Shown here piece after piece: positions 2,194-25,170 of a DNA stretch of 30,323 nucleotides. The notes below the pieces were generated by a model that saw nothing but the letters and a program-made list of their open reading frames with translations, made no database searches and was not told where the DNA came from. Both the position numbers and the translations under genes were made by a program. Position 1 is the first letter of the stretch. Every line of letters starts with the position of its first letter. The DNA comes from a virus (taxonomy: Duplodnaviria; Caudoviricetes): positions 1 through 30,323 of IMG/VR virus record IMGVR_UViG_3300029183_000025. The stretch is one strand, 5' to 3'.

Positions 2194-3180
2194 ATGGCCA
2201 AGAAAAAATCACCACGTAAGAAAGCCCGAGCCAAGAAGAAAGCTGCCATGAAAAAGGCGGCGAAGAAGAAGTCCCCCAGAAAGAAAGGCAAGGCCCACAA
2301 GAGAAGCGCCATGCCAGTGATGCGCGACGACGCGGAGGACTCTCCCCCGGAGCCCGTGGTGAAGGACTTGGCCGAGGTGATGACGCTGCGGGTTGAGCGT
2401 ATGTCGCTCGCCGATATCCAAGACCACCCCCGCAACCAAGAGATCCGCAACCATCCCGAGCCCGATAGTCAGGAGTGGGAAACTCTCCGCGCCTCTTTGG
2501 CCTACGACTACTTCGACCCGCTGGTGGTCAACATCCGCAACGGCCAACTCGTCTCCGGTCACTTGCGGAAGAAGCTCATGCTGGCGGAGGGAGTGAAGGA
2601 AGCGGACGTTGTGGTGAAGGACTACGATGAGCCCACCCACATGGCCCGGATGCTCGCCGCCAACAAGACGGTAGGCGCTCAGATCAATCAGGGCGTGGAG
2701 GCTTGGTTCAAGGAATTTGAAACCGTAGGTGGCGACTTCGACCCCGCAATCGCAGGCTTCACTTTTGATGAACGCGCTGGATTCATGGACGAGGAGCCCG
2801 GTTTCCAGTTCCCCGGCCAAGGAGCGACAGGGGCGACAGGAACGACCGATGGCAACAATGCCCAGAATGATCAGGGAGCGGACGGAGATAAGGGGAGCAG
2901 CGGAGGGAATGACCCGACCAACTCTTCTATCCGCTACACTCAACTCATCTACACCCTCGCCCAGCACGAGGAGTTCATCGGGCTCGTGGATCAGGTAAAG
3001 GCCAACTACGGTCAACAGATCACAGAAGCGCACGGTGAGGATACGCTCCCCGCCGTCGTCCTTTGGTGCGTAGGCCAACTGGCCGCTGCCGGGGATGAGG
3101 AGGAGACGGAGAGCGCGGAGGAGATCACCTCTGGCGATCTTGGCGACAGCGCCGACAGTTACGACAGTGCCCACGGATGA
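2194..3180 (+). CDS. ParB/Srx-like N-terminal domain protein with histone-H1-like basic N-terminus
   Basis: ATG 2194; HPRN..R.H, LRASL...DPLVVN..NGQLVSGHLR motif; K/A-rich start with two KKSPRKK. Confidence 0.85.
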   Translation: MAKKKSPRKKARAKKKAAMKKAAKKKSPRKKGKAHKRSAMPVMRDDAEDSPPEPVVKDLAEVMTLRVERMSLADIQDHPRNQEIRNHPEPDSQEWETLRASLAYDYFDPLVVNIRNGQLVSGHLRKKLMLAEGVKEADVVVKDYDEPTHMARMLAANKTVGAQINQGVEAWFKEFETVGGDFDPAIAGFTFDERAGFMDEEPGFQFPGQGATGATGTTDGNNAQNDQGADGDKGSSGGNDPTNSSIRYTQLIYTLAQHEEFIGLVDQVKANYGQQITEAHGEDTLPAVVLWCVGQLAAAGDEEETESAEEITSGDLGDSADSYDSAHG

Positions 3181-3235: not shown

Positions 3236-4240
3236 ATGATGGACCTTGACAGCATCCGTGCCCTCCCCGCCGAGCGGGTAGAGGTTTCCAAACTACTCAC
3301 CGCCGACCAGACGGTTGAGCGGGAGGGGAAGTTCTTGGAGCGTTCCCAGATCCCCACCATCATCAAGGGGGAGAACGTTGACGTGTTCTGTAAGGAGACC
3401 GGCAAGTGCCTCCTGAAGCTACGCACCAACGTCACTCCTCCGGACGTTGTAGTGGCTGGATACAACGCGCTCCATGAGGCGGGAGAAAGGACCAGCTACA
3501 ACCGTGGCATGGCGGCGGGGGAACACTCAGATGAAGTCCTGATGAAGGAGAACGCCAACGGGCGAGGAATCGTCCGCCTTTCCGGATACCGCTACAAGCG
3601 GATATTGGCTGACGGAACGGTGAGCGGGACATCCTATGCGAAGGAAACGAACGGATCGATTGTCGGCTATTTCGGGAGTGACCCGCGCTTTCCCTACTGC
3701 CGCCTGACCGCCTACACGCAGGAGAACTTCCAGAAGTTCCAAGCAGCGTTCCCCATGATCCGGAGCGTGGATGACGTCTATCAGGCGCTCATGCCTGAAC
3801 CCTACCAGAAGCAAAGAGCGGTGGTGGACGCGTCTTCCTCGGACTTCGTGGTGGAGGGCACTGCGTTCTCTACCGTTACCGTGAACAAGAATTTCCGCAC
3901 CGCCTGCCACTACGACCAAGGCGACTTTCGTGAAGGGTTCGGAAACCTCGCCGTGGTGCGCCGGGGACGGTTTGAAGGGAGCGAGACGTGCTTCCCCCAA
4001 TACGGAATCGGCGTGGATGTTCAAACCTGTGACGTGCTTCTGATGGACGTCCACCAGCTCCACGGAAACCTCCCTTTCAAGCCGCTGGAACCCAAGGCCA
4101 CCCGCCTCGCCTTGGTGATGTATTTCCGCGAAGATATCCAAGAGTGCGGAACCCAAGAAGAGGAGCTGAAGAAAGCCCGAGATGTCAACGAAACCAGAGC
4201 AAGACGCCCCGGAAGTAACCGCGCTAGTAACCGCAAGTGA
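3236..4240 (+). CDS. TET/JBP-family 2OG-Fe(II) DNA-base dioxygenase
   Basis: FSTVTVNKNFRTACHYDQGD (HxD), distal His in HQLHGN, 2OG-binding Arg in RLALVMYFRE. Confidence 0.9.
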   Translation: MMDLDSIRALPAERVEVSKLLTADQTVEREGKFLERSQIPTIIKGENVDVFCKETGKCLLKLRTNVTPPDVVVAGYNALHEAGERTSYNRGMAAGEHSDEVLMKENANGRGIVRLSGYRYKRILADGTVSGTSYAKETNGSIVGYFGSDPRFPYCRLTAYTQENFQKFQAAFPMIRSVDDVYQALMPEPYQKQRAVVDASSSDFVVEGTAFSTVTVNKNFRTACHYDQGDFREGFGNLAVVRRGRFEGSETCFPQYGIGVDVQTCDVLLMDVHQLHGNLPFKPLEPKATRLALVMYFREDIQECGTQEEELKKARDVNETRARRPGSNRASNRK

Positions 4241-4628
4241 GCCCATCCGCAGCGCGGAGGAGTATGACCGCGATTGGATTGAGGCGCTGTGGAAGAAGTG
4301 CGGGGTGTTCGGGAATTTCCATTGGCCTTGGTCTGCCTACATGGACAAGTGGAAGGGGCAGTGGCGCGTAGTCCCGGGCGGAGGATTTGCGCGGTGGCGA
4401 CACTACAAGGGAAAGACGACGCTCTACGATATCGCAGTTGACCCGTCCTGTCGCAGAATGGGGATAGCTTCCCGCCTGATTGAAGAGATGCCTGCCCCCA
4501 TCGTCCTCAAGACGGACGCGGACAACACCGCCGCTCAAGCGTTCTATGAGCGCCTTGGTTTCAGGTGTATGGGAACCACCAAGACCAAGAAGGGCAAAGA
4601 ACAAATCGAATACGCAAAACTGTCATGA
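4182..4628 (+). CDS. GNAT-family acetyltransferase
   Basis: LYDIAVDPSCRRMGIASRL (motif A) and NTAAQAFYERLGF (motif B); exact start uncertain. Confidence 0.9.
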   Translation: MSTKPEQDAPEVTALVTASEPIRSAEEYDRDWIEALWKKCGVFGNFHWPWSAYMDKWKGQWRVVPGGGFARWRHYKGKTTLYDIAVDPSCRRMGIASRLIEEMPAPIVLKTDADNTAAQAFYERLGFRCMGTTKTKKGKEQIEYAKLS

Positions 4629-5086
4629 GAATCCTTATTGTAGGGCTGGGTGATAACCACCGCGTGCCTCTGGCCTATGCCGCCATGAAGCGCACCCGCC
4701 CCAACGCCGAGATCCTTCACGCCTCCCTCCTCTCCTACCAAGCCGCAGACTGGAAGCCGGGACCCCCGGGCAAGAAGATCCGCCAGACCGCCAACAACCT
4801 CCACCTTGATCTCCGCGACTACCAGTCAGGGAGGCTCACCGCCGCCAAAATCAACATGGCCGACGCAATTGTCTTCATGGACGCCGGAAACCGGAAGCGC
4901 GTGGAGACAATCCTTGCCAAGTTCCCTGAGTGGGAGGGGAAGCTGATTGCGCTGGGACCGTTCGCCCAGCCGCCCGCTCGCCGCATCGCCGCGCTACAGC
5001 CTCTCAAGCAAGCCAGCGCCCTTTACCGCCAAGTGGTGCGTCAGGTAGTCTCCGCCGCCGAACAATTCGCCACCTCCCACCTTTAG
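4625..5086 (+). CDS. Low-molecular-weight phosphatase/ArsC-fold protein with degenerate active site
   Basis: ATGA overlap; MRILIVGLGDNHRVP aligns to the C-x5-R loop but lacks the Cys; ADAIVFMD..N motif retained. Confidence 0.7.
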   Translation: MRILIVGLGDNHRVPLAYAAMKRTRPNAEILHASLLSYQAADWKPGPPGKKIRQTANNLHLDLRDYQSGRLTAAKINMADAIVFMDAGNRKRVETILAKFPEWEGKLIALGPFAQPPARRIAALQPLKQASALYRQVVRQVVSAAEQFATSHL

Positions 5087-5090
5087 AGCC

Positions 5091-5735
5091 ATGTGCGCGA
5101 TCATCGGTTATAGCGGACCCGGGGACAGTGGTGAAGATTTGAAGTGTCTTCAAAACCTGATTCGTGAATCCCGCATCCGTGGCGTCCACTCCTTCGGTAT
5201 GGCGTGGGTGAATGACGCGGGGGAGGTTGAGACCTTCAAGGCCCACACCGAGGAAGATCTGGTGGCCCATCTACTGAAGACGTGGCCCGCCACCGGTCAG
5301 TTCCTATTCCACCTCCGCTATTCAACGAGCGGCGACTGGAAGGACCACAAGAACAACCAGCCCATCCTCCGCCACGGGATAGCCATGTGCTTCAACGGGA
5401 CCCTCCACATGGGAACCAAGAGGGAGATGGAAGCGGAGTATCACGTCAGCCTTGAGACGGAGAACGATTGTGAGCTGGCGCTGCTGGCGCTCCACGGGAA
5501 GAAGCTGAAAACGTTCGTCGAGGAAACGCAGGGCACGTTCGCCGGGGGGTGGCTTACAAAGGACGGGCTGGGGTTCATGCGTAACCTCAAGCGCCCTCTT
5601 TGGTCTGGCCAGTGCAATGACGGGATCTTCGTTGCCTCGACTCGGGATATCTTCGGTCGCGCTTTCAAAAGACGGAAGCTGCGTGGGCTGGGCGAGATCC
5701 CCGCCTACTACAAGATGGAGATCCCTGCTGTATGA
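5091..5735 (+). CDS. Class II (Ntn-hydrolase) glutamine amidotransferase, stand-alone domain
   Basis: N-terminal MCAIIG (Cys2 nucleophile), RG.HSFG, HLRYSTSG, NNQP, FNG, ENDCE. Confidence 0.9.
   Translation: MCAIIGYSGPGDSGEDLKCLQNLIRESRIRGVHSFGMAWVNDAGEVETFKAHTEEDLVAHLLKTWPATGQFLFHLRYSTSGDWKDHKNNQPILRHGIAMCFNGTLHMGTKREMEAEYHVSLETENDCELALLALHGKKLKTFVEETQGTFAGGWLTKDGLGFMRNLKRPLWSGQCNDGIFVASTRDIFGRAFKRRKLRGLGEIPAYYKMEIPAV
5138..5154. repeat. 17-bp palindrome, copy 2 (TTTGAAGTGTCTTCAAA), intragenic
   Basis: Read directly; lies within the amidotransferase CDS. Confidence 0.95.
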
Positions 5736-6664
5736 GGCAGGTGAATCAACAGCGCGTTGAGGAATTCCTCCGCTACCATTCGGACTCAAGTCACGCGCTG
5801 GATATTGATCCCGCCAACGACTGCCTCCGCTACATCTGTGATCGCTACGAGCTGAACCCGGAACAGCGCAGTTGGTTGGCGTTTCTCTACGCCACCTGCT
5901 ATTCGCCCACCACCGCGTTCTTCATGTATAATGAGTTCCCGGACTACGAAACGATCGATGACGGGAGACTCCAGAGATGGTGGGACGCTAACCGGGAGAA
6001 GGTGATTTTCCAAACAGACCGCCGCTGGACTCGTTCCCGCAACCAATGGGTGGACTGCGTGCGGAGTTATCGGGAGCACATCCAGAACGCGGGGTGGATA
6101 CAAGGGCTCGCCTTTGCCAAGGTAGGGGATGAAACCGCAACCCAGCTCCACAACCGCATGTGGGACTACTTCAAGAACGTCTTCACTTTCGGACGCTTCA
6201 CCATGTTCCTCTACTTGGAGATGGTGAACACGCTCACCTCCCACGACCTTGCTCCCACTACCCTCAACATGCGGGAGGCGGAGAGCTGCCGGAATGGGGT
6301 GGCCTACGCGCTGGGATTTGATTCCCTGCTCACCAAGGACGACAAGCGCAGAGACAACGGCCAGCGCCTCTCCAAACCGGAGATGAATGGACTCCAGCAA
6401 TCCTTCGACTATCTCCGGGATAGAGTCTATGACGACGCCAACGGAGGACTGGAGCAGCACGACAACGTCTGGTCCATAGAGACTACGCTGTGCGCCTACC
6501 GCAAATTCAAGGAGGGGAAGCGGTGGGTCGGCTACTACATCGAACGCGCCCGTCGTGAACTTGTCCAGATGGAGCAGAACGTCCAAGATGGAGTAGAGTG
6601 GGACGTGCTCTGGCAGTTCCGCCGCGAAACCTATGATCCAACTTACCTGAAAGAACTATCATGA
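5732..6664 (+). CDS. Amino acid:DNA transferase (aGPT-pyrophosphorylase clade 2, HhH-glycosylase-like fold)
   Basis: DIDP, WLAFLY, FQTDRR, FGRF..F.YLE, ETTLCAYRK, R..GYY motifs; adjacent to a P-loop kinase. Confidence 0.8.
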   Translation: MRQVNQQRVEEFLRYHSDSSHALDIDPANDCLRYICDRYELNPEQRSWLAFLYATCYSPTTAFFMYNEFPDYETIDDGRLQRWWDANREKVIFQTDRRWTRSRNQWVDCVRSYREHIQNAGWIQGLAFAKVGDETATQLHNRMWDYFKNVFTFGRFTMFLYLEMVNTLTSHDLAPTTLNMREAESCRNGVAYALGFDSLLTKDDKRRDNGQRLSKPEMNGLQQSFDYLRDRVYDDANGGLEQHDNVWSIETTLCAYRKFKEGKRWVGYYIERARRELVQMEQNVQDGVEWDVLWQFRRETYDPTYLKELS

Positions 6665-7194
6665 ACCTGATTGCAATTTGCGGCGAGCCCGCAGTAGGAA
6701 AGACCACCTTGTTGAGACGCTTCCGTGAAGAAGCGGCGGAGAGGCTGGGGGAGTTTGAACCGTTCCAATTCGGACTGGTGCGGGGCATTGTTGACAAGGA
6801 CCGTTCACTCTGGATCACCGGAGTCTATGACGGGTCCGTGTTCGAGGGAGGGGACAAGCTATCCATGGCGGTCCAGCCCGTATTCATCAAGATGCTTCAC
6901 CAGTTGGAAGGGCAGGACTGCGCGGTGATCGTCGAAGGCGACCGCCTCACCAACGCCTCCCTTTTCAGAGAGTTCCCAACCGAGACGGAAGGGATCATCG
7001 TTGAGGTATCCGAAGAGGTGCTGGCGGAACGCCATGCCGGAAGAGGCGCGGAGCAATCAGACAAGTTCCGCCAAGCTAAGCGCACCAAGGTCCAGAACCT
7101 TGAGCAGGAGTTCGGATTCGAGCGCCTTTCCAACAACACCGAAGCCGAGCAGGATGAGATCATTGCTTGGTTGGCCGAGCGGTGTTACGGGTAA
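6661..7194 (+). CDS. P-loop nucleotide kinase, probable hydroxymethyl-pyrimidine DNA kinase
   Basis: Walker A GEPAVGKTT, G.Y...FEGGDKLSMAVQP, IVEGDRL, R..R lid; gene context. Confidence 0.8.
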   Translation: MNLIAICGEPAVGKTTLLRRFREEAAERLGEFEPFQFGLVRGIVDKDRSLWITGVYDGSVFEGGDKLSMAVQPVFIKMLHQLEGQDCAVIVEGDRLTNASLFREFPTETEGIIVEVSEEVLAERHAGRGAEQSDKFRQAKRTKVQNLEQEFGFERLSNNTEAEQDEIIAWLAERCYG

Positions 7195-7236: not shown

Positions 7237-7791
7237 ATGGCACAAGGAATCCACCAACAGATCAACCCAGCCGCTCCGGTTGCCCTTACCCTAGTGGACG
7301 AGTGCCCGGATACCGGCAACCAACTCTCGCGCCGAATCATCATTCCCCGGGGAAAGCGGAAGCAGGACGTGAGGGCACGCAAGGATATCTTCCTCCAACT
7401 CTTTGTGCGGAATCTGGGCAATATAGCCATCTGCTGCCGGAAGATGGGGATTGACCGCACCGCCTACTACGAGTGGATGAAGACTGACGCCACGTTCCGT
7501 CAACAGATCGCGGAGATTGAAGAGGTGCGGTTGGATTTTGCCGAGCACGCTCTTTGGGCGCGGATGAAAGCCGGGGACACCAAGGCAATCATCTTCTACC
7601 TCAAGACCAAGGGGAAAGAACGCGGGTATGTGGAGAAGCAAGACGAGCTGATTCCTGTGGACCACAACAACGCTACCGTGCGGAGTGCGTTGGACGTTGT
7701 TCTATCTCACCTTACCCCCGAGCAGATGAAGGCAATTACTCAGGAGATCGAACCCGATGGCGGTAGCAGTCAAGAAGAAGGCCACGCGTAA
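7237..7791 (+). CDS. terS: Terminase small subunit (HTH)
   Basis: GNIAICCRKMGIDRTAYYEW HTH, AIIFYLKTKGKERGY motif; overlaps the start of terL. Confidence 0.8.
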   Translation: MAQGIHQQINPAAPVALTLVDECPDTGNQLSRRIIIPRGKRKQDVRARKDIFLQLFVRNLGNIAICCRKMGIDRTAYYEWMKTDATFRQQIAEIEEVRLDFAEHALWARMKAGDTKAIIFYLKTKGKERGYVEKQDELIPVDHNNATVRSALDVVLSHLTPEQMKAITQEIEPDGGSSQEEGHA

Positions 7792-9376
7792 ACGACGCAG
7801 GCTCAAGTCCAAGCAAGTCCGCCGCGCCGAGAAGAAGGCTGCGGAGATGGAGGAGCGTAGGCAGGCGGCAAGGGACCGTCAGCGTGCAGCTATCGAGAAG
7901 GCGGAGAACGAAGCCGCTGCCGCCTCTGCGCAGTTGCTCCCCGCGCAGATCAAGGCAATCGCCGGGGCGAGGACGGACCCCACCATGTTCTTCCTCCTCA
8001 TCAAGGAGATCCTGAACCCAACCCCCGAGCGCCCCTACATCCTTGGGGAGATGGCCCGCCAACTACTCCAGTTAGTTCAGGACGTCCACAACATGGATCA
8101 GAAGCGCCATGCGGTCTCAGTCCCTCCCCAGCACGGCAAGTCCACCATCCTGACGATCATCACCGTCGCTTGGCTGGTGGGCCGCTTTCCGGGTATCCGC
8201 GTCGGCATCACCGCCTACTCTCCCTCTCTGGTCTGGACGTTCTCGGATAAGATCCGGGACATCATCAATCATCCGATTTATCAGCTCATCTTCCCGAACT
8301 GTAAGCTGTGCCGCTCGCTCCAGAAGAAAGAGGAGTGGGTGACTACTACCGGGAGCAAGGTGATGGCCAAGTCGCGGGGGATGAAGTTCACCGGTCACGG
8401 TCTGGACTACCTCATCATTGATGACCCGCACTCTGGCCGCGCAGACGCCGAATCCGACGTGGAGAGGACCAAGGTGAAAGATTGGTTCTTCGCCGACTGC
8501 CTGTCCCGCCTTTCTCCGGACAGCAAGGTGTTCATCATCATGACGCGGTGGCACCCGCAGGATTTGATCGGGACACTCAAAGATCCGGACTACAACAAGA
8601 ATCTGGACCTTGAAGGATTCGGCTACCGGAAATTTGTATTCCACAACTACCCCGCGCTGTCTACCGGCGGGCCGGATGATCCTCTGGGTAGGATGGAAGA
8701 GAACCAAGCACTGTTCCCGGAATTCAAGGATGCGCACTTTCTCATGGCGGAGAGGGCAACCCAGCCCGCCTACGAATGGGAAAGCCAGTATCAGGGCAAC
8801 CCAATCCCTGCTGGCGCGGGGCAGTTGGATATCTCGAAGATTCATAGGATCAAGCGCGAAGACGTTCCACGCAACATCCCAAGAGCGCGGGGGTGGGACT
8901 TGGCGCTGACGGAGAAGCAAACGAGTGACTACTCGGTGGGCGCTCTTTGCGCGTGGGATAGCGGCACCCGTGAATTCTATATCTTGGATATCTGGCGGAA
9001 GAAGCTGGTGTGGACCAAGATGCAACCGCGCCTCGTTGACCTCGCCCGCCAAGACAAAGAGGAGGAGAACGCCAACACGCTTGGGATGGAGGCGGTGAGT
9101 GGATTTGAGATGGGACGGTTGCAGGTGGCCAAGCTATTGCGCGGAGACGTGAAGGTCATCAAGTGCAACCCACCCAAGGGAGGAAAGATGGCTCGCGCCG
9201 AGGCTTGGATGCACGTTGCGGAAGCTCGCCGCCTTTACGTCTGTGAGGGAGACTGGAACCGCGCTTTCTTTGAGGAGCTGACATACTTCCCGGACGTGGA
9301 GCATGATGACCAAGTGGACGCCGTGTCTGTAGCTTGGGAGACTCTGACGCGTCGCCGTCGTCTCAAGCTCGCCTGA
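7757..9376 (+). CDS. terL: Terminase large subunit
   Basis: Walker A PPQHGKS, Walker B LIIDDPH, IMTRWH coupling motif, nuclease GWDLA..SDYS and HDDQVDA. Confidence 0.97.
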   Translation: MAVAVKKKATRKRRRLKSKQVRRAEKKAAEMEERRQAARDRQRAAIEKAENEAAAASAQLLPAQIKAIAGARTDPTMFFLLIKEILNPTPERPYILGEMARQLLQLVQDVHNMDQKRHAVSVPPQHGKSTILTIITVAWLVGRFPGIRVGITAYSPSLVWTFSDKIRDIINHPIYQLIFPNCKLCRSLQKKEEWVTTTGSKVMAKSRGMKFTGHGLDYLIIDDPHSGRADAESDVERTKVKDWFFADCLSRLSPDSKVFIIMTRWHPQDLIGTLKDPDYNKNLDLEGFGYRKFVFHNYPALSTGGPDDPLGRMEENQALFPEFKDAHFLMAERATQPAYEWESQYQGNPIPAGAGQLDISKIHRIKREDVPRNIPRARGWDLALTEKQTSDYSVGALCAWDSGTREFYILDIWRKKLVWTKMQPRLVDLARQDKEEENANTLGMEAVSGFEMGRLQVAKLLRGDVKVIKCNPPKGGKMARAEAWMHVAEARRLYVCEGDWNRAFFEELTYFPDVEHDDQVDAVSVAWETLTRRRRLKLA

Positions 9377-9385: not shown

Positions 9386-9414
9386 TTGCAAAAGTATTTT
9401 TACCGGTCTACAAT
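9386..9414 (+). promoter_or_regulatory. Phage promoter P4 (class B)
   Basis: TTGCAA 9386-9391, 17 nt, TACAAT 9409-9414, GTG 6 nt later. Confidence 0.8.
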
Positions 9415-9420: not shown

Positions 9421-9761
9421 GTGAGCTACACGCAGGAGATCAGCAGCAACCCCGCCACCGGTTGGTTGGGGCATTTGTCGTGGCAAGGCATTATAGTTAC
9501 ACCTGTTCAAGCTTTTAGTGGTAGGGAACACGGCATTATTGAAGGTCACATCTGGAAACACGTTGAAGGGCGGAGGTGGAGGCGCAGTGGCCTATTGGCT
9601 CAATCCACCGTTGCAAGAGCGGCAACAAATACCTTATGATGCACTACGGCTGGGAAGCGTTTTCCAAGGACACTGACGAGGACGCAGAACCACCGAAACC
9701 AACCCGCGCTTTACCGGAGAGAGGAAGGCGCAAGCTGAAGAGAAAGAGAACCACCACATGA
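9421..9761 (+). CDS. Hypothetical protein with RALP..GRRK C-terminal motif; apparently split by a -1 frame break (9421-9639 and 9576-9761)
   Basis: GTG 9421 follows P4; the overlapping -1 frame ORF ends PTRALPERGRRKLKRKRTTT. Confidence 0.55.
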
Positions 9762-11323
9762 GCCAATCCACCATTCACTCCTCTGCGGGAGTCAATCCAC
9801 ACAAAGAGGTGACCAAAGATCCCAACCGGATACTCCAAGGCCAGCTTACGTTCATCGTGGTTTGCTGTGACCGTCCGCGCAAACTCCAACGGCTGCTCGA
9901 CTCCATTGCCAAGTTCTTTCCCGGGGTCAACGTAGTGGTTGCGGACGTCTCAGAGAATCCGGTGTTCGTGAAGCTCCATGAGGGACAGCGGGTGTTCCGC
10001 GTAGGAGAACCGGACGAGGAGACGGGCATCGCCAACTTGAGCGCGGGAAGGAATCTCGCCCTTTCCAAAGTAGGCACCAATTTCTTCTGCCTCGTGGACG
10101 ACGACCACTTCTTTGAACGCAAGAAGGACGTTTACTCAATGTTCGCTGCCTGCCGCGCTACCTCCAAACCGAGTGAGCGCCCTGACGTGGTTGGCGGTAG
10201 CTATCACAACGTGGATGGAACCCGCAGCCATTGGTTCGGTCACTTCAACTACGAAGGTGGGGGAATCCGGATGCGCATCCCTCGGGTCAGGAAGATTGAC
10301 ACCACCATCCGCGTAGATATCTGCCACAACTTCTTCGTTGCCCGCACTCATTCCATCAAGCGGATGGGAGGCTGGGACCCCGCCATCCCAATCGTCTCCG
10401 AGCACATGGACTTCTTCATCAAGGGCAAGATGGCGGGGCTGAAAGTCTTCCACCTCCACCGCGCCAACATCCGCCACGATCCCGGAGGAGATCTCACCGA
10501 TGAGAAAGGACTGAAGGGAAAGCGGCGGGTGGACAAGGCGCAGAGGAACTACGACAAGAATCGGAAGCGCGAAGGATTCCGTGCAACGCTCCTCAAGAAG
10601 TGGAGCTTGTCCCACCTGACCCATCACCGAGGCACCCGTCACTTCCTCAAGACGGATGGCGTGCTGGACTTCAAAAAGCGAGACTATCGGTCCTCGGTGG
10701 GTATCGTGGTGCTGACCACCGGGCGCTCGGGTTCCTCCTGCATCTCTCAGGTTCTCCACACGCTGGGGGTCTGCATGGGGGATAACTTGGCCGAGCCACA
10801 GCAGGGATTCTCCGACGTGAACCCAGACGGATATTTCGAGGATCTTCGGCTCATCGGTCTGGGTAAGGCGCTGGCCAACAACCCCGGCGCGTGGGAGCTG
10901 CACAACGAGCTGGACGACCACGTCCACTCACTCTCTACCCGCTACGACTACTGGGGGATGAAGAACCCGCAACTGTCGCTGTGCGTGCCCGCTTTGGAGA
11001 AGCTGCGCAAGAGCCGGGGACTCGATCTGCGCTACGTCTGGATTCACCGCAAGCTCCACAAGTGCGTCGCCTCTTTGGCCAAGACGGGGTGGCTGGGACC
11101 GGACTCCAGCGAGGCGGACGGTTACATGACGCAGATGTATCGGAAGGTGCGCGGTCACTTCGATTCCCTCCCCGCCAAGATCAAGCTGCGCGTGGAGTAT
11201 GAGGACTTGCTGAAAGATCCGTTTGGAGAAACGCGGAAGCTCGCCCACTGGGTGGGGATCACCGAGGGCAACACCATCGGTAGGGCGTCTGAGACTATCA
11301 AACCCAGCCTGCGGCATTTTTGA
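9758..11323 (+). CDS. Glycosyltransferase family 2 - sulfotransferase fusion
   Basis: N-terminal GT-A motifs (DRP..L.RLL.SI, VVVAD, LSAGRN, LVDDD, GGWD, EH.DFF); C-terminal PAPS loop TTGRSGSS, WGMKNP, VEYEDLL.DP. Confidence 0.9.
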   Translation: MSQSTIHSSAGVNPHKEVTKDPNRILQGQLTFIVVCCDRPRKLQRLLDSIAKFFPGVNVVVADVSENPVFVKLHEGQRVFRVGEPDEETGIANLSAGRNLALSKVGTNFFCLVDDDHFFERKKDVYSMFAACRATSKPSERPDVVGGSYHNVDGTRSHWFGHFNYEGGGIRMRIPRVRKIDTTIRVDICHNFFVARTHSIKRMGGWDPAIPIVSEHMDFFIKGKMAGLKVFHLHRANIRHDPGGDLTDEKGLKGKRRVDKAQRNYDKNRKREGFRATLLKKWSLSHLTHHRGTRHFLKTDGVLDFKKRDYRSSVGIVVLTTGRSGSSCISQVLHTLGVCMGDNLAEPQQGFSDVNPDGYFEDLRLIGLGKALANNPGAWELHNELDDHVHSLSTRYDYWGMKNPQLSLCVPALEKLRKSRGLDLRYVWIHRKLHKCVASLAKTGWLGPDSSEADGYMTQMYRKVRGHFDSLPAKIKLRVEYEDLLKDPFGETRKLAHWVGITEGNTIGRASETIKPSLRHF

Positions 11324-11335
11324 AGTGTCTTCAAA
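11319..11335. repeat. 17-bp palindrome, copy 4 (TTTGAAGTGTCTTCAAA)
   Basis: Read directly; contains the TGA stop of the GT2 gene. Confidence 0.95.
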
Positions 11336-11360
11336 ATCCGACATATCGCGTTGGCCGGGC

Positions 11361-11906
11361 ATGGTTGAAGTTGGCCCGGATATCTGGACGGTGAGCGAAT
11401 TCGTTCCGCCCGCTGTTTGTGATGTCGTTCTCAAAGCGCAGGAGGAAGTAGGGTGGACCAAAGCCCTGCCTCATTGCTATATTCAGGACAACAACCTTTC
11501 CTATCGTTTCCTTCACCCACACATCCTTGCCGTCCTCCAGAAGATCCACGCGGAGTTGGACCGGTTCGACAAGAACAACCTCCTCGCGCCACCGGGACCG
11601 GAGCACATCCAACTATCGCGGGGGACGACCTACAAACCGGGCGGTGAATTCAAGTCCCACTTCGACTGTCCCGCTTTGGATAAGATGGGGGAGTGGTATT
11701 GGAGCGTGATTGTCTACCTCAACGATGACTACACCGGAGGGCACTTGGTCTATCCGCGCCACGGAGTGAATCACGTTGCAAAGCGCGGGGACGTTGTGGT
11801 CCACTTAGCAGGACCGACCCACCCCCATACTTCCACGCCGCTATTGAGCGGGCAGAAGTTCATCGTCTTCAACCGCGTCTCGCTCAACTACCGAGCGACT
11901 TCCTGA
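11361..11906 (+). CDS. 2OG-Fe(II) oxygenase, prolyl-4-hydroxylase-like
   Basis: ATG 11361; YKPGGEFKSHFD (HxD), VIVYLNDDYTGGHL, HPH...P..SGQKF. Confidence 0.9.
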   Translation: MVEVGPDIWTVSEFVPPAVCDVVLKAQEEVGWTKALPHCYIQDNNLSYRFLHPHILAVLQKIHAELDRFDKNNLLAPPGPEHIQLSRGTTYKPGGEFKSHFDCPALDKMGEWYWSVIVYLNDDYTGGHLVYPRHGVNHVAKRGDVVVHLAGPTHPHTSTPLLSGQKFIVFNRVSLNYRATS

Positions 11907-12534
11907 CCAACATCTGCCCGGTGTGGGAGTTGATATTGGTCATGGTCTCAGCCTCTCCCTTGAAGTAGAGATCGTAGAGAACCTTGGAGGTGTTCCGCAC
12001 CTGATAGCCTTTGTGGTCGCCTTTGTCTGCGGAACCCCAATCGTCGATCAGGCACCAGCCTCCGGGCTTGAGTTGCGCCCACGCGGCGACGAACTGAGAA
12101 GTTGAAAGCGGGGAGTCGTGGTCCGCATCAACGTGGATGAGATCGAACTCGCCCAAGTCATAGACTTGATCCCCCTCCCGGTCTTCGATTCGGAAGTTGC
12201 TCCACCCGCGCTTCTGGAAGGCCATCTTCAATCCAGCCTCCGCCCTTTCGTTGGACTTGGGGTCTTGAAAGCAGCGGTCAATCCCGATGAACTCCGGGTT
12301 GGGCGTTCCCGCGTCAATCGCGCCTTGAATCATCGCCACCGCCGAGTAGCCGTAAAGCACGCCGATCTCAAGGATGCGGGCAGGAGCAGCCGCCCGAGCG
12401 ATTGAGTAGTGCCACTCATAGTAGTTCCCGCCGTGGAGCCAGTCCTTGGGGTCACCGAACGGATTGTGCTTGGTGTAGCAGCGCTTTTGGATCAGCTTGG
12501 GGACGGCGGCGGAGGCGGGATGCTTTACGATCAT
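11884..12534 (-). CDS. Class I SAM-dependent methyltransferase (Methyltransf_24-like)
   Basis: ILEIGVLYGYSA, FDLIHVDADH, LKPGGWCLIDDW; the only clear minus-strand gene. Confidence 0.9.
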   Translation of the reverse strand: MIVKHPASAAVPKLIQKRCYTKHNPFGDPKDWLHGGNYYEWHYSIARAAAPARILEIGVLYGYSAVAMIQGAIDAGTPNPEFIGIDRCFQDPKSNERAEAGLKMAFQKRGWSNFRIEDREGDQVYDLGEFDLIHVDADHDSPLSTSQFVAAWAQLKPGGWCLIDDWGSADKGDHKGYQVRNTSKVLYDLYFKGEAETMTNINSHTGQMLVRKSLGS

Positions 12535-12540
12535 CCTCGA

Positions 12541-12568
12541 AGCGTAGCAGGAAAAAATTCCATCTCAA
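12541..12568 (-). promoter_or_regulatory. Candidate divergent promoter for the methyltransferase
   Basis: Minus strand TTGAGA, 16 nt, TACGCT, ATG 6 nt later; back-to-back with P5. Confidence 0.5.
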
Positions 12569-12581
12569 GGCATCTTTTTTG

Positions 12582-12609
12582 TTGCAAAAGTCTTTTTATA
12601 GGATACACT
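12582..12609 (+). promoter_or_regulatory. Phage promoter P5 (class A)
   Basis: TTGCAA 12582-12587, 16 nt, TACACT 12604-12609, ATG 9 nt later. Confidence 0.85.
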
Positions 12610-12618
12610 ACTGGAGTT

Positions 12619-12885
12619 ATGAGAAGATTAGCAAGAACGCCAGAAAACTTGAATCTGCTATGCGAGATCCGAGATCTCACCCGCGCCAAGGAACTGCTCG
12701 AAGAATTGATTGAGCGGAAGGACGCGCAACTCGAAGTCGCCGACGCTGGCAACTGGTGGTATGAGGTAGATGGTCACTGGCCTTCCGTAGACCTTGAGAC
12801 TTTCTGTCAGGAGATGGACGAGTGCATCCAAGACGGACGCAAGCACCAGCGCGGGGTCGCTATTCCGGAAGGAGAGGAGGGATAG
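12619..12885 (+). CDS. Hypothetical protein
   Basis: ATG 12619 in GTTATGAG context after P5. Confidence 0.8.
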   Translation: MRRLARTPENLNLLCEIRDLTRAKELLEELIERKDAQLEVADAGNWWYEVDGHWPSVDLETFCQEMDECIQDGRKHQRGVAIPEGEEG

Positions 12886-12887
12886 TC

Positions 12888-13142
12888 ATGGCCGAGCCCG
12901 AACGCAGACCCAAGCCGCCCGCCCCCGTCCGCTACTACGCCAGCGTGTGGGACGAGAAGTTGGGCCACTACACCAAGGTGCCGATTGACGGAGACTCCGT
13001 TGAGATCCACGTCGGCAGCAAGATCCTTCGCGTGAAGGGGCAGGGCGACGGAGAATTTTTCGAGGTGGCCACCATCCGGGGAACGCTCCAGATCGAACCC
13101 CGCGCCGCGAATTCCATCCACATCAAGGAGACCGACCTATGA
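12888..13142 (+). CDS. Hypothetical protein
   Basis: ATG 2 nt after the upstream stop; ATGA overlap downstream. Confidence 0.75.
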   Translation: MAEPERRPKPPAPVRYYASVWDEKLGHYTKVPIDGDSVEIHVGSKILRVKGQGDGEFFEVATIRGTLQIEPRAANSIHIKETDL

Positions 13143-13459
13143 AGATTGAAATCACCCGCAGTCTCGCCTTTGAGCTGTTTCCCAAACAGGCGAAGAACAT
13201 AGAAGCCCTGCACGGTAGCCGGGTGGAGGAGTTCCACGTTGAATACGGTATCGAAGGGCAGGCGCTCACCATCAATCAGGTGATAGGTAAGGAGCCTAGA
13301 CCGGACCCGCCCAAGAAGGTGGAGCGCATTAAGCTATTCTTCGCCGCGCCAACTGGAACCGTCGGCAAGGAGAGCATGGAACCCACCGGAGCCTATGACC
13401 TTTTCGCAGGAGAGGGATACACCAAACTCAAGGAAACTATCGAAGAAAACCTCGCATGA
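13139..13459 (+). CDS. Hypothetical protein
   Basis: ATGA-coupled ORF, 106 aa. Confidence 0.75.
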   Translation: MKIEITRSLAFELFPKQAKNIEALHGSRVEEFHVEYGIEGQALTINQVIGKEPRPDPPKKVERIKLFFAAPTGTVGKESMEPTGAYDLFAGEGYTKLKETIEENLA

Positions 13460-13668
13460 AACTCTACGTCACCTACTACGCCGACGAGGCGGGAGACCGC
13501 CAACAGTTTCATGGCTCCAAGTCTGAGATGAAGGTCGCCCGCGCCATCCTTCGCGACGACCCAAAGATCACCATGAAGCCCCAGCTCAATAACGCGGAGG
13601 GCGTCGAAGTCCCCACGGACAAAGCTGGCCTTCTCAAGTTCCTCAACTCCCACTGCTCCACGACATGA
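13456..13668 (+). CDS. Hypothetical protein
   Basis: ATGA-coupled ORF, 70 aa. Confidence 0.75.
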   Translation: MKLYVTYYADEAGDRQQFHGSKSEMKVARAILRDDPKITMKPQLNNAEGVEVPTDKAGLLKFLNSHCSTT

Positions 13669-14057
13669 CCCGCTTTCTCATCATCGCCCTTTTAGGTTTT
13701 CTCATAACACTTGTCGCCTACCTGCTCCGCGAGTCCGGTGGTCTCAGCACCTCCACTCAAGGAGACCCAACCAACCAACGAGCGGGTGGGCGGCAAAAAT
13801 GGGAGGACGGTGAAGCCGAACGCCGTCGCCGCCAACGTCTCCGGGATATCTACACCCACATGCCCCAGCGCCCCAAGAAGCTCTCCGAACAAGCCGTGGC
13901 GCGGAGGGAGAGGCTAGCCGACCAAGAGGTATGGAGGCAGCTCGCCTTGGACCCCTACAACACCCTCACCGTAGACGGCGGAGTGGCGCGGTGGATAGTT
14001 TTCGAGACCAGTGAAGGAATGCTGATCTCACAACCACAAGAAAAACACGACGAATGA
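13665..14057 (+). CDS. Hypothetical protein with N-terminal membrane anchor
   Basis: FLIIALLGFLITLVAYLL segment; ATGA-coupled. Confidence 0.75.
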   Translation: MTRFLIIALLGFLITLVAYLLRESGGLSTSTQGDPTNQRAGGRQKWEDGEAERRRRQRLRDIYTHMPQRPKKLSEQAVARRERLADQEVWRQLALDPYNTLTVDGGVARWIVFETSEGMLISQPQEKHDE

Positions 14058-14581
14058 AAAATACCAGAACCAAACTCGCCTCTCTGGCGACCGCCCTACT
14101 GACCCTCGCCCTGCTCCCCTTTGGCATCAACGCCATGGAGTCCGGAGAGAACGAACAACCCAAGAAGGAGGACCCCAAGCGCATCAAGGTTTTCGACGTC
14201 TATGAGCACAACCGGAACCACTCCGAAGACAACGTGCTCGGCAACGCCGTCGGGAATCACGGTGGGGGACCGATTGCGGTGGAGGCTTGGCAGGGAGCCG
14301 ACCAGACTCCCCGCACGCTCCCTACTACGATCAAGCTCACCGATCTCAAGGCGGACGCCAACGGCATCACCGCCATCTGTTCCGACGCCAAGGTGGCTGC
14401 GGACGTGAAAGCCGGGAAGCTGAAAATCACGCTCACGGTCCAGACCGTGGCTCCGCGTGGCTCCAGTGACCCCAGACCGAAGCAGGACCCCAAGGGACGC
14501 TATTACGTCGTGTCCATCAACATCGTCGGCGCTTTGGCCCACGGCGGAGTCCTGAACGGCGCAACGCTCCCTGCTTGGTAA
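14054..14581 (+). CDS. Putative secreted/periplasmic protein
   Basis: Sec-like signal MKNTRTKLASLATALLTLALLPFGINA. Confidence 0.75.
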   Translation: MKNTRTKLASLATALLTLALLPFGINAMESGENEQPKKEDPKRIKVFDVYEHNRNHSEDNVLGNAVGNHGGGPIAVEAWQGADQTPRTLPTTIKLTDLKADANGITAICSDAKVAADVKAGKLKITLTVQTVAPRGSSDPRPKQDPKGRYYVVSINIVGALAHGGVLNGATLPAW

Positions 14582-14589
14582 ACTTCCCA

Positions 14590-14666
14590 TAGGGTCAGGC
14601 CCGTCCAGCCTGATCCACCCTAGCCCGTCCCCCATAGTTCCCGAACTAGTTCCCCGGGGGACGGGC
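14590..14666 (+). other. Intergenic double stem-loop (possible terminator, processing site or small structured RNA)
   Basis: TCAGGC/GCCTGA stem (14595-14613) and a perfect 11-bp stem GCCCGTCCCCC 14623-14633 / GGGGGACGGGC 14656-14666. Confidence 0.5.
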
Positions 14667-14677
14667 GCAACCCAAAA

Positions 14678-14694
14678 TTTGAAGACACTTCAAA
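14678..14694. repeat. 17-bp palindrome, copy 5 (TTTGAAGACACTTCAAA)
   Basis: Read directly; 3 nt upstream of ATG 14698. Confidence 0.95.
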
Positions 14695-14697
14695 ATC

Positions 14698-15003
14698 ATG
14701 ACTGAGTTCGAGGATTTTGATCTGGGAGGTGAGTGGAAGATCTTTTGAGCGGTAGCTGTAACCGTGGGCAAGTCTTGCCCTGTAGGCGCACTACCGATTG
14801 GATCAGCCAAGACCAAAGATGAAGCCAAGTCGATGGTGGTTCTCACCTGCTCGCTTGGAACCGACAAACTCTACTACCCCAACGCGTTCAAAGGCGTGGA
14901 CGTGGATAACGAGAGCGCACGCATCGCCGCTTTCAATAAGTTCGGTCACGATCTAGCACGCGCCCGAAAATTCATTCGGGAAAGGCGCGAGGAGCCAGAG
15001 TAA
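14698..15003 (+). pseudogene. Hypothetical gene with in-frame TGA at 14746-14748 (error, nonsense mutation or readthrough)
   Basis: ATG 14698 is in frame with ORF 14764-15003, with a single TGA after codon 16. Confidence 0.5.
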
Positions 15004-15006
15004 TTC

Positions 15007-15035
15007 TTGCAAAAGTCTTTTTATTAGTTTACAAT
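15007..15035 (+). promoter_or_regulatory. Phage promoter P6 (class B)
   Basis: TTGCAA 15007-15012, 17 nt, TACAAT 15030-15035, ATG 11 nt later. Confidence 0.85.
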
Positions 15036-15046
15036 CTCACAGTGTT

Positions 15047-15880
15047 ATGAGTAAGCCAGTTGATGAGATTATCTGCTACCTCGAAAGAGGACCGAGGAAG
15101 CCGCACACCGCCCACCTTTCGCTTCGCCACCATGAAGGTCAGAAGTGGATGCTACTGGAGGTGAGCAACGATCCGGAAGGGAAGCCACCGGGCATCTACA
15201 AGTTCTTGTGTTACGAGGTATCCAGCCCGCACGGAGTCTACACCCTCGCGCCGGATCAGATGCGGATGGCCCAGAACCCGCAGGAGAATTTGATGGGGAT
15301 TGCCCTCCGCCGCGACTTCAGTTTAGAGCACATAGAGCAGGGAGCGCATGTTTGCCTCCACCTACTGAAGGAAGGCGAGGCGTGGGAACGGGAGAAGCTT
15401 GAGCTGAGGTGTAGGATCGGGCAGGACACCACCATGATGGCGAATGGCGCTCTCCTTTACGACAAGGGTGACCGTGCTTTGCTACGCCCCGGAGAGTATG
15501 ACCCGGAAGATGAGATTTTCGACACCGTGGTCCTCGTTTGGCAGACGAGGGAGCAATGCTGGCGGAAGTTCACTGTGCGGGAAGATCTCGCTGCCCGGGT
15601 AGGCGGAATGATCCGAGAGTATGAGTGGCGCGGTGATCGTTGGTTTTTCCTGAACTCCATTGAGCGGGAGGACGTCGGCAGTGCCATCATGGACGTCGGC
15701 AAACTCTCTGCGCGGTATCTTGGCCAAACCCGGAAAGAGGCGGGGATGTGGCAGTGGACCAACTGCACCGACAAAACGCTCGCCGTTGGGTGGGTTCCCC
15801 CGGACGAGACGCCGGGACCCGCCCGCGCTTTGCCCTCCGCAGGCAGGAGGAAGATCAAGAGGAAGGTGGTGAAGCCATGA
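15047..15880 (+). CDS. Hypothetical protein with RALP..GRRK C-terminal motif
   Basis: 277 aa; ends PARALPSAGRRKIKRKVVKP. Confidence 0.85.
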   Translation: MSKPVDEIICYLERGPRKPHTAHLSLRHHEGQKWMLLEVSNDPEGKPPGIYKFLCYEVSSPHGVYTLAPDQMRMAQNPQENLMGIALRRDFSLEHIEQGAHVCLHLLKEGEAWEREKLELRCRIGQDTTMMANGALLYDKGDRALLRPGEYDPEDEIFDTVVLVWQTREQCWRKFTVREDLAARVGGMIREYEWRGDRWFFLNSIEREDVGSAIMDVGKLSARYLGQTRKEAGMWQWTNCTDKTLAVGWVPPDETPGPARALPSAGRRKIKRKVVKP

Positions 15881-16413
15881 CAACGGTAGCAGTGAAACAG
15901 CTATTCTTCTCTCAGGGTCGCTCTGATAAGTTCTACAAGGCCGTCATCCGGCACTACGATACACCGAACAATCACTACCAAGTAGCCTTCTCTTGGGGAC
16001 GGCGGGGAGGCACCGGGTCGGCCAACTACACCTCTTACGATACTTGGGACCAAGCCTTGGCCGCAGCCAATAACAAGCTCACGGAGAAGCACAGTAAAGG
16101 ATACACGGCAAACAATGACGGAGTGACGCCCTGCTCCCACGTAGAGGCTATGATCACCAACGCTCAGGTTCTCCCGGGAGCTACGAACGGCAATTTTTCG
16201 CAGGCGCTCAACGCCGTGAATTTCCAGATGGCGAATCCGGGGATGAACAACGGCGCACAATTCGCCGCCGCAAAGAAGAAAGCCGCGAAGAAGTCGGCGG
16301 GGAGAGGAAACCGACCCGGACAAGCACCAAGGAACGCGCCGAAGCCGGAACCGCCTGCTCGCGCTTTACCAACCAGAGGACGGAGGCGCATGAAGCGGAA
16401 GAAGAATGGCTGA
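15877..16413 (+). CDS. WGR-domain protein with RALP..GRRR C-terminal motif
   Basis: ATGA overlap; SDKFY...V.FSWGRRGGTG...A......EK.SKGY; ends PARALPTRGRRRMKRKKNG. Confidence 0.85.
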   Translation: MTTVAVKQLFFSQGRSDKFYKAVIRHYDTPNNHYQVAFSWGRRGGTGSANYTSYDTWDQALAAANNKLTEKHSKGYTANNDGVTPCSHVEAMITNAQVLPGATNGNFSQALNAVNFQMANPGMNNGAQFAAAKKKAAKKSAGRGNRPGQAPRNAPKPEPPARALPTRGRRRMKRKKNG

Positions 16414-17236
16414 TGCGAATGATTTATCTCCAGAGCAGATTCAACACATAGCGGATACCGTTCAAAGGAACCGCATGGCGCGGGTAGGTCAGTCACCTCA
16501 ACGGGACCGATTGGTGCTGGAGCATAAGTGGAAGAAGGGAGAGAGTAGCATCAATCTCCGGATCACTGAGCGCCCCGGCCAAGAGAAGCCGTGGAGGCTC
16601 GCCATGATCACTACCAATTCCAAGGGTAAATCTAGCTTCCACTCTGCGAGCTACAATAGCGAGCACTCAGCGCGGTCCCATCTAGGGCAAGTCGAACTCA
16701 CCATTCAGCACTCGAACTGGATCAAGCAGGAGGGGTCCACCCCGCTTTCAGATATGCCAACCACCAATTCCGCCGACAGCTCTGGTAACGTTTTCACTTT
16801 GGAGGATTTGAAAGAAGCGCAGAAACTCTTGGCAAGCATGGGAGCTGATCCATCGCCGCCGTTCGGATTGGATTTCACTGTGGCCACGGAGCAAGTCTCC
16901 AAGGCGCTGGCCAATCTCGGGAAGACCGCCGCCAGCGGCATCACCAACTACGCTCAAGCTATGAGGGGGCTGGCGGAAGCGAAGGCGAAGCCCGCCGTGG
17001 TTTGGTTCGAGAGAGATTTGTCGGTCAACGGCAACTGGATCTTCAAGAAGGGCGAGGAACTTCACCTCTCCAAGGTAGAAGGAACCCAGAACCGTTACGT
17101 CTATCCAGATCAGGACTATGAGGGTGCGCCGGGGGTGAACTGGAGCATGATCCGAGATTACGTCACGACGGAGAAGCCTCAACCTGTCCGGGCGTTACCT
17201 CAGCGCGGTAGGAGAAAGATCAAGCGGAAGAAGTGA
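16406..17236 (+). CDS. Hypothetical protein with RALP..GRRK C-terminal motif
   Basis: 276 aa; ends PVRALPQRGRRKIKRKK. Confidence 0.85.
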   Translation: MADANDLSPEQIQHIADTVQRNRMARVGQSPQRDRLVLEHKWKKGESSINLRITERPGQEKPWRLAMITTNSKGKSSFHSASYNSEHSARSHLGQVELTIQHSNWIKQEGSTPLSDMPTTNSADSSGNVFTLEDLKEAQKLLASMGADPSPPFGLDFTVATEQVSKALANLGKTAASGITNYAQAMRGLAEAKAKPAVVWFERDLSVNGNWIFKKGEELHLSKVEGTQNRYVYPDQDYEGAPGVNWSMIRDYVTTEKPQPVRALPQRGRRKIKRKK

Positions 17237-17237
17237 G

Positions 17238-17764
17238 ATGCCTCTCAATTCAGAGTTCGTAGCCAACACGGTTGAGGTGCGGTTCCACAGTGGCGCGGAT
17301 AACCACGAGATGCGTTGGAGTCCGTCGCTGAACAAGTTCCAGATGTGGAACGCCCAGAAACAGTTGTTCGAGCCCACCAAGATCTTTATCGGGAACCCCA
17401 ACCAGCTCGACAAAGAGGCAACCCGGTCCCGCTTTCCGGATACGAATGGAACCACCACACGATGTCTCCGTTCCGTCCGTTCCTTGAATGGTTTGTGAGG
17501 GTGATGTTGACCGGTAGATTCAAGCCGGGGTCTGTGATCCGCTTTGAAGGGACCAGCACCGGGTTCGGTGGAGCGCGAGGTAAAGAGAGTGTGACGTTGG
17601 ATCTCACCCATCCGTGGGACGCCATCCTCGTCAACGGCTCGCACGTCGAGGTGCTGTCTGGCTACAAGCGCGGTGGGAAGATCCCCGCGCCTCGGGGCAC
17701 CAAGGTCCGCGCCCTCCCAACGCCGGGAAGACGGAAGCTGGGCAGAAAAAAGTTCAGCAAGTAG
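17238..17764 (+). CDS. Hypothetical protein with RALP..GRRK C-terminal motif; apparently split by a -1 frame break (17238-17498 and 17315-17764)
   Basis: ATG 1 nt after the upstream stop; the overlapping -1 frame ends KVRALPTPGRRKLGRKKFSK. Confidence 0.6.
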
Positions 17765-24282: not shown

Positions 24283-25170
24283 ATGGCAAAGAAGAAAGCG
24301 AAGAAGAAAGCCGGGGCCAAGAAAAAGGCCGCAGCCAAAAAAGCCGCCCAGCCAGCCGCCAAGAAGAAGGTGGCATCGCCCTTTGTCCGTGTGAGATACA
24401 CGGGTGAAAACGAGCAGCGCATGGGACGCTACGGCAAGCTTGTCCCGGGGATGGAGTTCTCCATGACCCGAAGCGACTGGCGCTACGTGGCCAAGTCTGG
24501 AAACCCTCTTTTCGAGTTCATCTCCGACGCCAAGGTTGCCGAGCAGCCGCACAATCCGAATCTCAAGGTTCCCGAGGTTCCCGCAGAGGATACGGTGAAC
24601 AGCGAAGACGAAACCCAAACCAGTAAGAACGATGGCCAAGCAGGAGACAATTCCGCAGAAACCCCCAACGCCGAAGAAGGGGGGCAAGTTCAGCAAACCG
24701 ACGACACGCAAAGCAGCGGACAGTCGGAAGACTCAAGCGATTCCAGCGACGAAGTAAGCGGGGAATCATGGGAGTCGGATGAATCCGAGGATTCCGAAGA
24801 CTCCAGCGCCGAGGACGTGAAAGTCGTCGGAGAAGAAACCACTCACACAGAAACTATCAACGACGGTGGCGAAGTCACCGTGGACGACTACAACGATCTC
24901 ACCGTGGCAGTGCTCAAGGAGGAGATCGAAAGGAGAAACAGTGAAGACGCCGCAGGCATCGACATCCCTTCAGGCGCTCGCAAGGGCGATCTGGTCGGAT
25001 TGCTTGAAGCGGATGACCAGCGACGGTCATCTGGCGGAGACGCTGTGCCCGAAGGAGAAGAGGATGACTCCACCGAAAGCGGAGAGTCAGAAGGAAGCTC
25101 ATGGTGGAGTTCCTATGACTCTCAAGAAAGTTACGATTCTGGGGATCTCGACGAGTCCTCCGAAGGGTAA
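24283..25170 (+). CDS. Low-complexity protein: H1-like basic N-terminus, acidic Ser/Glu/Asp linkers, HeH/Rho-N-like motif
   Basis: MAKKKAKKKAGAKKKAAAKK; YNDLTVAVLKEEIERR...IPSGARKGDLVGLL. Confidence 0.8.
   Translation: MAKKKAKKKAGAKKKAAAKKAAQPAAKKKVASPFVRVRYTGENEQRMGRYGKLVPGMEFSMTRSDWRYVAKSGNPLFEFISDAKVAEQPHNPNLKVPEVPAEDTVNSEDETQTSKNDGQAGDNSAETPNAEEGGQVQQTDDTQSSGQSEDSSDSSDEVSGESWESDESEDSEDSSAEDVKVVGEETTHTETINDGGEVTVDDYNDLTVAVLKEEIERRNSEDAAGIDIPSGARKGDLVGLLEADDQRRSSGGDAVPEGEEDDSTESGESEGSSWWSSYDSQESYDSGDLDESSEG

Follow-up and report, generated by a model that had tools for sequence, protein, structure and literature searches.

Five proteins with a common C-terminal tag

The DNA analyzed here is a whole linear virus contig of 30,323 bp (IMG/VR record IMGVR_UViG_3300029183_000025; hereafter the window), which originates from an aquatic metagenome and is estimated to be 35% complete. 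The window encodes a head module of the HK97 type, with terminases, portal, prohead protease and capsid, and approximately 12 kb of accessory genes separate its large terminase from its portal. Our subject is a 14-residue, arginine-rich peptide (the tag) which, preceded by a Pro-rich linker, is shared by the C-termini of five proteins of this phage (the carriers), and its relationship to the C-terminal tail of a Ycf46-like AAA+ ATPase module in related phages. The five tags have the following positions.

9705..9746, + strand: tag copy 1, RALPERGRRKLKRK
15824..15865, + strand: tag copy 2, RALPSAGRRKIKRK
16360..16401, + strand: tag copy 3, RALPTRGRRRMKRK
17189..17230, + strand: tag copy 4, RALPQRGRRKIKRK
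17708..17749, + strand: tag copy 5, RALPTPGRRKLGRK

An initial annotation had described five such motifs 1–4 residues from the stop codon, and this description was borne out. All five lie on the + strand, the 14-mer starts 15–18 codons before the stop in each gene with 1–4 residues following it, and a degenerate DNA pattern (up to two mismatches allowed) matched the window exactly five times and gave 0 matches in 100 dinucleotide shuffles. Nine of the 14 positions are invariant, the non-basic residues A, L, P and G among them, and the last 15 residues of each carrier have a net charge of +7 to +9. The carriers themselves, and one untagged open reading frame (ORF) in their midst, are as follows.

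9636..9761, + strand: carrier 1, 41 amino acids, or 61 from a GTG at 9576; no family
15047..15880, + strand: carrier 2, 277 amino acids; no Pfam, PHROG or NCBIfam family
15877..16413, + strand: carrier 3, 178 amino acids, with an N-terminal WGR domain
16406..17236, + strand: carrier 4, 276 amino acids; no convincing family
17238..17498, + strand: untagged ORF of 86 amino acids, between carriers 4 and 5 in the operon
17495..17764, + strand: carrier 5, 89 amino acids, or 100 from an ATG at 17462; no family

The stops of four of the five tagged genes overlap or abut the next gene, and that of carrier 1 overlaps the start of a glycosyltransferase-sulfotransferase gene. Carrier 1 is the least certain gene of the five; codon scores favor starts near 9576/9636 for carrier 1 and at 17495 for carrier 5. 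Sequencing or assembly frameshifts, considered for carriers 1 and 5 on account of their overlapping frames, were rejected: Logan contigs, which possibly derive from the same source data, agree letter for letter. Carrier 2 gave no usable match in the ESM Atlas, and a search with the WGR carrier recovered only itself among 155 candidates.

Two promoter sequences of a single class precede the tagged genes.

9386..9414, + strand: sigma70-like promoter sequence, TTGCAA-17-TACAAT, upstream of carrier 1 (predicted function)
15007..15035, + strand: sigma70-like promoter sequence, TTGCAA-17-TACAAT, upstream of carriers 2–5 and near-leaderless (predicted function)

A promoter of the same class does stand before the tagged genes, as had been claimed along with an operon and co-regulation. 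Co-regulation itself is not established, since the class also occurs at 20386, before groES and portal. The operon holds the untagged ORF as well. In all, the window has eight promoter-like sequences that are nearly identical (TTGCAAAAGT...) and fall into two classes, at 44, 409, 893, 9386, 12582, 15007, 17775 and 20386. A start codon follows the -10 box by ~6–12 nt, and near-leaderless transcripts are predicted. Other contigs of similar depth in the source runs have these promoters too. A promoter scan returned five AT-rich matches, attributed to chance. Directly 3' of the promoter at 9386, an ORF at 9421-9639 has codon scores like those of non-coding DNA, and the 150–210 nt 5' of carrier 1 may be a leader RNA.

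The carriers are dissimilar outside the tag, as initially proposed, with the WGR domain present in one of them. The best cross-carrier BLASTP match between protein bodies has E=1.7, a comparison at the level of sequence and not of folds, and on that basis a paralogous family was rejected. Identical codon pairs at the nine invariant columns number 28 of 90, against 29.8 expected from phage codon usage; the 30 nt upstream of the tags have only 7–15 positions in common; and no conserved RNA structure was found across the tag copies (-0.92 kcal/mol). A DNA repeat or RNA structure as the basis of the motif was rejected accordingly, with synonymous codons at chance level and no common RNA fold. Because the bodies are unrelated and the synonymous codons randomized, selection acts on the peptide, and the view of the tag as a portable short linear motif on diverse proteins holds. 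The Leu of RALP is nonetheless encoded by the rare codon TTA in three of the five copies, while across 50 ORFs TTA accounts for 11 of 698 Leu codons; this excess may be the remnant of one copied ancestral segment.

These rare codons bear on an explanation in which the motif acts in translation, by nascent-chain pausing or by coupling to the next gene. RAPP and RAGP are ribosome arrest motifs which RALP resembles, many codons of the tags are AGG or AGA, and the overlapping or abutting stops would suit coupling. However, downstream of copy 5 there is a new promoter rather than a coupled gene, no conserved RNA structure was found, and the sister tags described below have no RALP and end at the stop codon. 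We regard a role in translation as very improbable.

Related endings in relatives and the tail of a Ycf46-like module

The exact 14-mer was sought widely. The strict back-translated pattern gave 0 matches in IMG/VR, 2 in JGI metagenomes and 6 in 185,579 GTDB genomes. The eight matches were rejected as chance: three are peptide-exact but lie 57–869 codons from a stop, inside overlapped frames, and the others are loose or internal. None of the six GTDB matches is a credible C-terminal gene end. A profile of the tail recovered only four of the window's own proteins among 1,737 candidates and only the window's own proteins from 1.84 billion representatives; in leave-one-out runs two of the five carriers reached E<=0.001, so rare carriers can be missed. 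On nine relative records the profile gave 0 matches in a run with a positive control. No match to the 14-mer was seen in 91 terminase or portal loci, and a single-sequence scan with the capsid gave nothing. At this moderate sensitivity, no further C-terminal carrier of the exact 14-mer was found in IMG/VR, JGI, GTDB or 1.8 billion proteins, and we regard the sequence as peculiar to this phage.

Relatives do have a tag of their own. When the C-termini of each whole relative genome were compared without bias, a shared ending, unlike the 14-mer, emerged in the complete genome G001. Nine of its ORFs end in a Pro-rich linker followed by R-x-R-[RK]-[LM]-E-hydrophobic or a close variant, and these are seven accessory proteins, a 542-residue AAA+ ATPase and the adjoining 207-residue protein. 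DUF1257 and DUF2997 genes lie downstream of the last two, which identifies the group as the set of Ycf46 (a SpoVK/Ycf46/Vps4-type AAA+ protein), Ycf35 (DUF1257, PF06868) and DUF2997 (PF11211) found in this phage's relatives; some elements have DUF3150 (PF11348) as well. The pattern R[RK][LIM][ED][FLIW] occurs at six C-ends in G001 against 0.57 expected, and at four in the complete genome G268 (three accessory proteins and the partner protein) against 0.27 expected. Because the pattern was fixed on G001, the G268 count is an independent test. In G001 and in G268 alike, the genome's own ATPase and partner bear the same version of the tail. C-terminal enrichment in relatives, whose absence would have counted against the initial annotation, was found for the sister tag in two complete genomes and not for the exact 14-mer, which is absent from the relatives searched. 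In G001, an ORF at 5177-5467 of locus L108 starts with the sister tag (MNKRMRLLEF) and directly follows a gene that ends with it.

In each of the three phages that tag accessory proteins, one of the tagged proteins is WGR-like. Compared to carrier 3, the protein of G001 is 34% identical over 90 residues (E=1e-7) and that of G268 is 24% identical over 91 residues (E=3e-4).

The module, recognized as Pfam AAA, DUF1257 and DUF2997, occurs in phages related through their head genes (capsid 44–49% and terminase 43–50% identical). It is present in four of the six capsid-bearing relatives found without an ATPase query; the two misses are a 33%-complete fragment and a distant complete genome. Three more capsid relatives, found via the ATPase, were left out of this count. 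The core was counted in module ATPases and neighboring genes. RR lies within the last 16 residues of 82 of the 120 best ATPase homologues, and RR[KR]-hydrophobic ends 39 of 159 distinct ATPase tails, compared to 22 of 949 other ORFs of the ATPase loci. The stricter GRR[KR]-hydrophobic is found in 5 of the 159 tails and 5 of the 949 ORFs, three of the latter being module partners, among them two DUF3150 proteins. In its GRR[KR][IV] form the core stands at the end of five of the 159 ATPases (e.g. SAGRRKI) and of these two DUF3150 proteins, which end in VGRRKI. The adjacent partner family (210–250 residues) has the tail in 10 of 13 members.

On a profile of the core, ATPase tails score above their own shuffles (p=2e-21). 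When a profile was trained only on the 82 ATPase tails, the five carriers ranked 1, 2, 3, 4 and 6 among 50 window genes. Rank 5 is held by the large terminase (7757-9376), which ends in RRRRLKLA; its relatives end similarly (e.g. RRKKLLYA), and it may be a sixth carrier, or the ending may merely be part of the terminase.

Charge could be all that these tails share, as in a generic basic anchor for nucleic acid or the ribosome that was copied onto several genes. The strongly positive last 15 residues and the several Lys/Ala-rich, histone-like tails in this phage would suit such an anchor, and WGR domains bind nucleic acid in other proteins. Nine invariant positions that include A, L, P and G nevertheless exceed the needs of a charge patch, the window's other basic tails score low on the module profile, and sister tags contain an acidic Glu. 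A basic anchor is therefore a poor candidate, and we think it quite improbable.

A tag independent of the module, serving to dock at a host hub or to load the capsid, would require that the match to ATPase tails be a convergence of basic tails. This would accommodate a window in which the module is not seen, the absence of RALP and KRK from ATPase tails, the promoter class common with the groES-portal operon, and the similar end of the terminase. Against this, none of the GTDB genomes has a strict C-terminal match, and the WGR-like family is tagged in relatives too, by a peptide plainly common to their ATPase and its partner. Capsid loading had been proposed by analogy with the phage T4 capsid targeting sequence, which is likewise a single short peptide carried by phage proteins that otherwise diverge. 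The analogy fails on position: the T4 signal is an N-terminal propeptide of 10 residues that is processed (PMC9026906), whereas the tag is C-terminal. Beyond the common promoter class we found no link of the tag to head proteins, and capsid loading is disfavored. Altogether, independence from the module is improbable, if a little less so than the basic anchor. None of the partners initially proposed (capsid, RNA polymerase, ribosome, protease or nucleic acid) is the best candidate; the core matches the tail of the module ATPase.

Several observations weigh against equating the tag with the module tail. The core common to both is only 4–5 residues long, and the anchoring pattern of the ATPase profile was picked after the window tags had been seen. 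GRR[KR]-hydrophobic is found in 0 of the 120 nearest ATPases, and the five ATPases that carry it belong to a remote clade (26% identity). For RALP, ATPase tails show no advantage over their shuffles (p=0.48), and the terminase at rank 5 indicates that arginine richness alone contributes to the profile score. The closest relatives end in E-hydrophobic, not KRK; 13 of 15 other relatives lack a C-terminal RRLEF-type match, and G269 has one, on the partner protein. Loose RR[KR]-hydrophobic is barely enriched at C-ends (7 against 3.9 expected in G001 and 4 against 2.9 in G268). The WGR matches are weak, with a Pfam E of 0.1 for G268 and none for G001. Lastly, the module is not in the 35%-complete window, so its co-occurrence with the tag in this genome is unproven.

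The window has 0 matches to L-E-F/L/W, the acidic-hydrophobic ending with which the nearest relatives and many cellular ATPases typically close. This ending is not obligatory, since other module members also do without it (GRRKIAA, RKIKTR). Going by the sequences compared, the RALP and KRK flanks are additions of this lineage. The arginine core matches the tail of the ATPase and its neighbor protein in related phages, which suggests that the tail motif plugs the carriers into the module. We consider it likely that the tag is the module tail in the form peculiar to this lineage, serving as an address tag for a Ycf46-like AAA+/DUF1257/DUF2997 module.

Genome setting

Complete genomes of relatives with 43–50% terminase identity measure 81–88 kb. 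In a capsid tree the phage falls among its capsid relatives with no sister resolved. The source runs gave nothing when searched with a relative's ATPase operon at 80% identity, a cut-off that is uninformative at such divergence. In G002, the module ATPase (L113, 5300-7780) has 826 residues, and database homologues of that length have intein and HNH domains.

Other features of the window concern DNA modification and regulation. A DNA hypermodification cluster at 3236-7194 encodes a Tet/JBP oxygenase, GNAT, low-molecular-weight (LMW) phosphatase, glutamine amidotransferase, amino acid:DNA transferase and P-loop kinase. Within the terminase-portal interval, 9758-12534 holds the glycosyltransferase-sulfotransferase fusion, a 2OG-Fe(II) oxygenase and an opposite-strand methyltransferase; the fusion (38%) is also found 3' of the terminase in relative L018. 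The palindrome TTTGAAG-N3-CTTCAAA is present eight times (1118, 5139, 7198, 11320, 14679, 20223, 24220 and 29765), mostly at gene ends with two copies intragenic, and further copies are found on other contigs of the source runs. None was seen in 91 relative loci. The palindrome is likely an operator for a dimeric phage regulator. Lys/Ala-rich, histone-like stretches are encoded at 2194-3180 (a ParB-like protein), at 24283-25170 and 26724-27302 (head-region proteins) and at 16258-16312 (the WGR carrier).

Candidate readers of the tail

Which component of the module would read the tail can be approached through cellular ATPases. Among 37 distinct cellular ATPase loci, 12 have both the tail and an adjacent DUF1257/DUF2997, 20 have neither, 3 have the DUF only and 2 the tail only (Fisher p=1.8e-5); the loci come from two phylum samples with 1.5-kb flanks and self-built DUF profiles, and the phylogenetic non-independence of this table, like its short flanks and its profiles, weakens the association. 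A second point against it comes from phages: of 44 loci that have the DUF genes, 13 do not match the tail pattern. Because cellular ATPases without adjacent DUFs mostly lack the tail, the DUF1257-DUF2997 pair is predicted to be the likeliest reader, with the ATPase ring as its main rival. A model of DUF1257 (pLDDT 94) gave no PDB match in Foldseek at E<=0.001.

If the AAA+ ring were the reader, the tag would mark substrates or cofactors, and the copy on the ATPase itself would be an autoinhibitory or inter-subunit element. All of the tail-family evidence applies equally to this arrangement, and there is a precedent in p97, whose cofactors bind the ATPase via the arginine-rich VIM and VBM (PMC5389986). 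The G001 ATPase model (pLDDT 92.8) has its best PDB matches in Cdc48/p97, aligned to D1-D2 along its whole length, leaving no N-domain. Its last 20 residues have a pLDDT of ~55 and are not folded back in the monomer model; the tail is probably disordered. Together with the lack of the tail in 20 of the 22 cellular ATPases without adjacent DUFs, which a DUF reader fits better, these properties make the ring an unlikely reader.

The p97 system still offers the closest parallel in kind. Short Arg-rich or C-terminal motifs (VIM, VBM and the C-terminal PUB-interacting motif) occur there on unrelated proteins and serve a two-ring AAA+ protein of the same fold. VIM and VBM, however, form helices that attach to the N-domain of p97 (PMC5389986), a domain absent from the model of the relative's phage ATPase, and the tag does not fit their consensus, RRx5AAx2R or RRhRLxRF. 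Additionally, the p97 tail and the cofactor motifs differ in sequence, whereas in the phage module the ATPase and its presumed clients share one. In the Ycf46/DUF1257/DUF2997 set itself, a flexible linker leads into the same RR-x-hydrophobic core at the C-termini of the ATPase and its partner. What differs in this phage is that five accessory proteins, unrelated to one another, bear the tail, that its RALP and KRK flanks are private, and that the module is not in the window.

With DUF1257-DUF2997 as the reader, the carriers would dock at the site used by the ATPase's own tail, most likely on the DUF1257-DUF2997 complex. We predict that the module genes lie in the part of this genome that the contig does not cover. 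Tagged proteins would be brought to the motor as clients or cofactors and then remodeled or released. The tag may have spread by copying of a 3' gene segment, of which the TTA codons would be a remnant, and then been kept by selection. That the tag docks its carriers at the module with DUF1257-DUF2997 as reader has, in our estimate, close to an even chance.

Ycf46 and Ycf35 are long-standing genes without a known mechanism in cyanobacteria and red-lineage plastids. According to a recent preprint, the cyanobacterial Ycf46 operon is stress-induced and Ycf46 is reported to interact with KaiC (bioRxiv 10.1101/2025.07.21.665879). The module is known in print only as genes: we found no description of the tail, its reader or tagged clients in our searches of the open literature. 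The window adds a further lineage version of the module tail, with its private RALP prefix and basic suffix, and a recurring tagged WGR-like protein. As a portable element the tail is a direct handle on these genes, providing a defined peptide for reader pull-down and a rule for client prediction. Because cultured phages carry the module, it is testable now: DUF1257 homologues occur in 17 records (Rhizobium phages L338C, P11VFA and RHph_I4, Aeromonas phage HJ05, Pseudomonas phage SM1 and kin). HJ05 has the tail on the ATPase, the partner and one further protein, and the tails of SM1 are degenerate.

More tentatively, and we lean against rather than toward it, Ycf46-DUF1257-DUF2997 may be an undescribed, tag-addressed, Cdc48-like remodeling machine from cyanobacteria and plastids to phages. 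DUF1257 and DUF2997 would form the reader or scaffold, and motor and clients would compete for one site via the same C-terminal peptide. Phages would rewrite this peptide per lineage and graft it onto fast-evolving accessory proteins, routing them through their own motor. If it is true that the tag suffices for delivery to a bacterial p97-like motor, it would represent a new addressing code and a possible tool.

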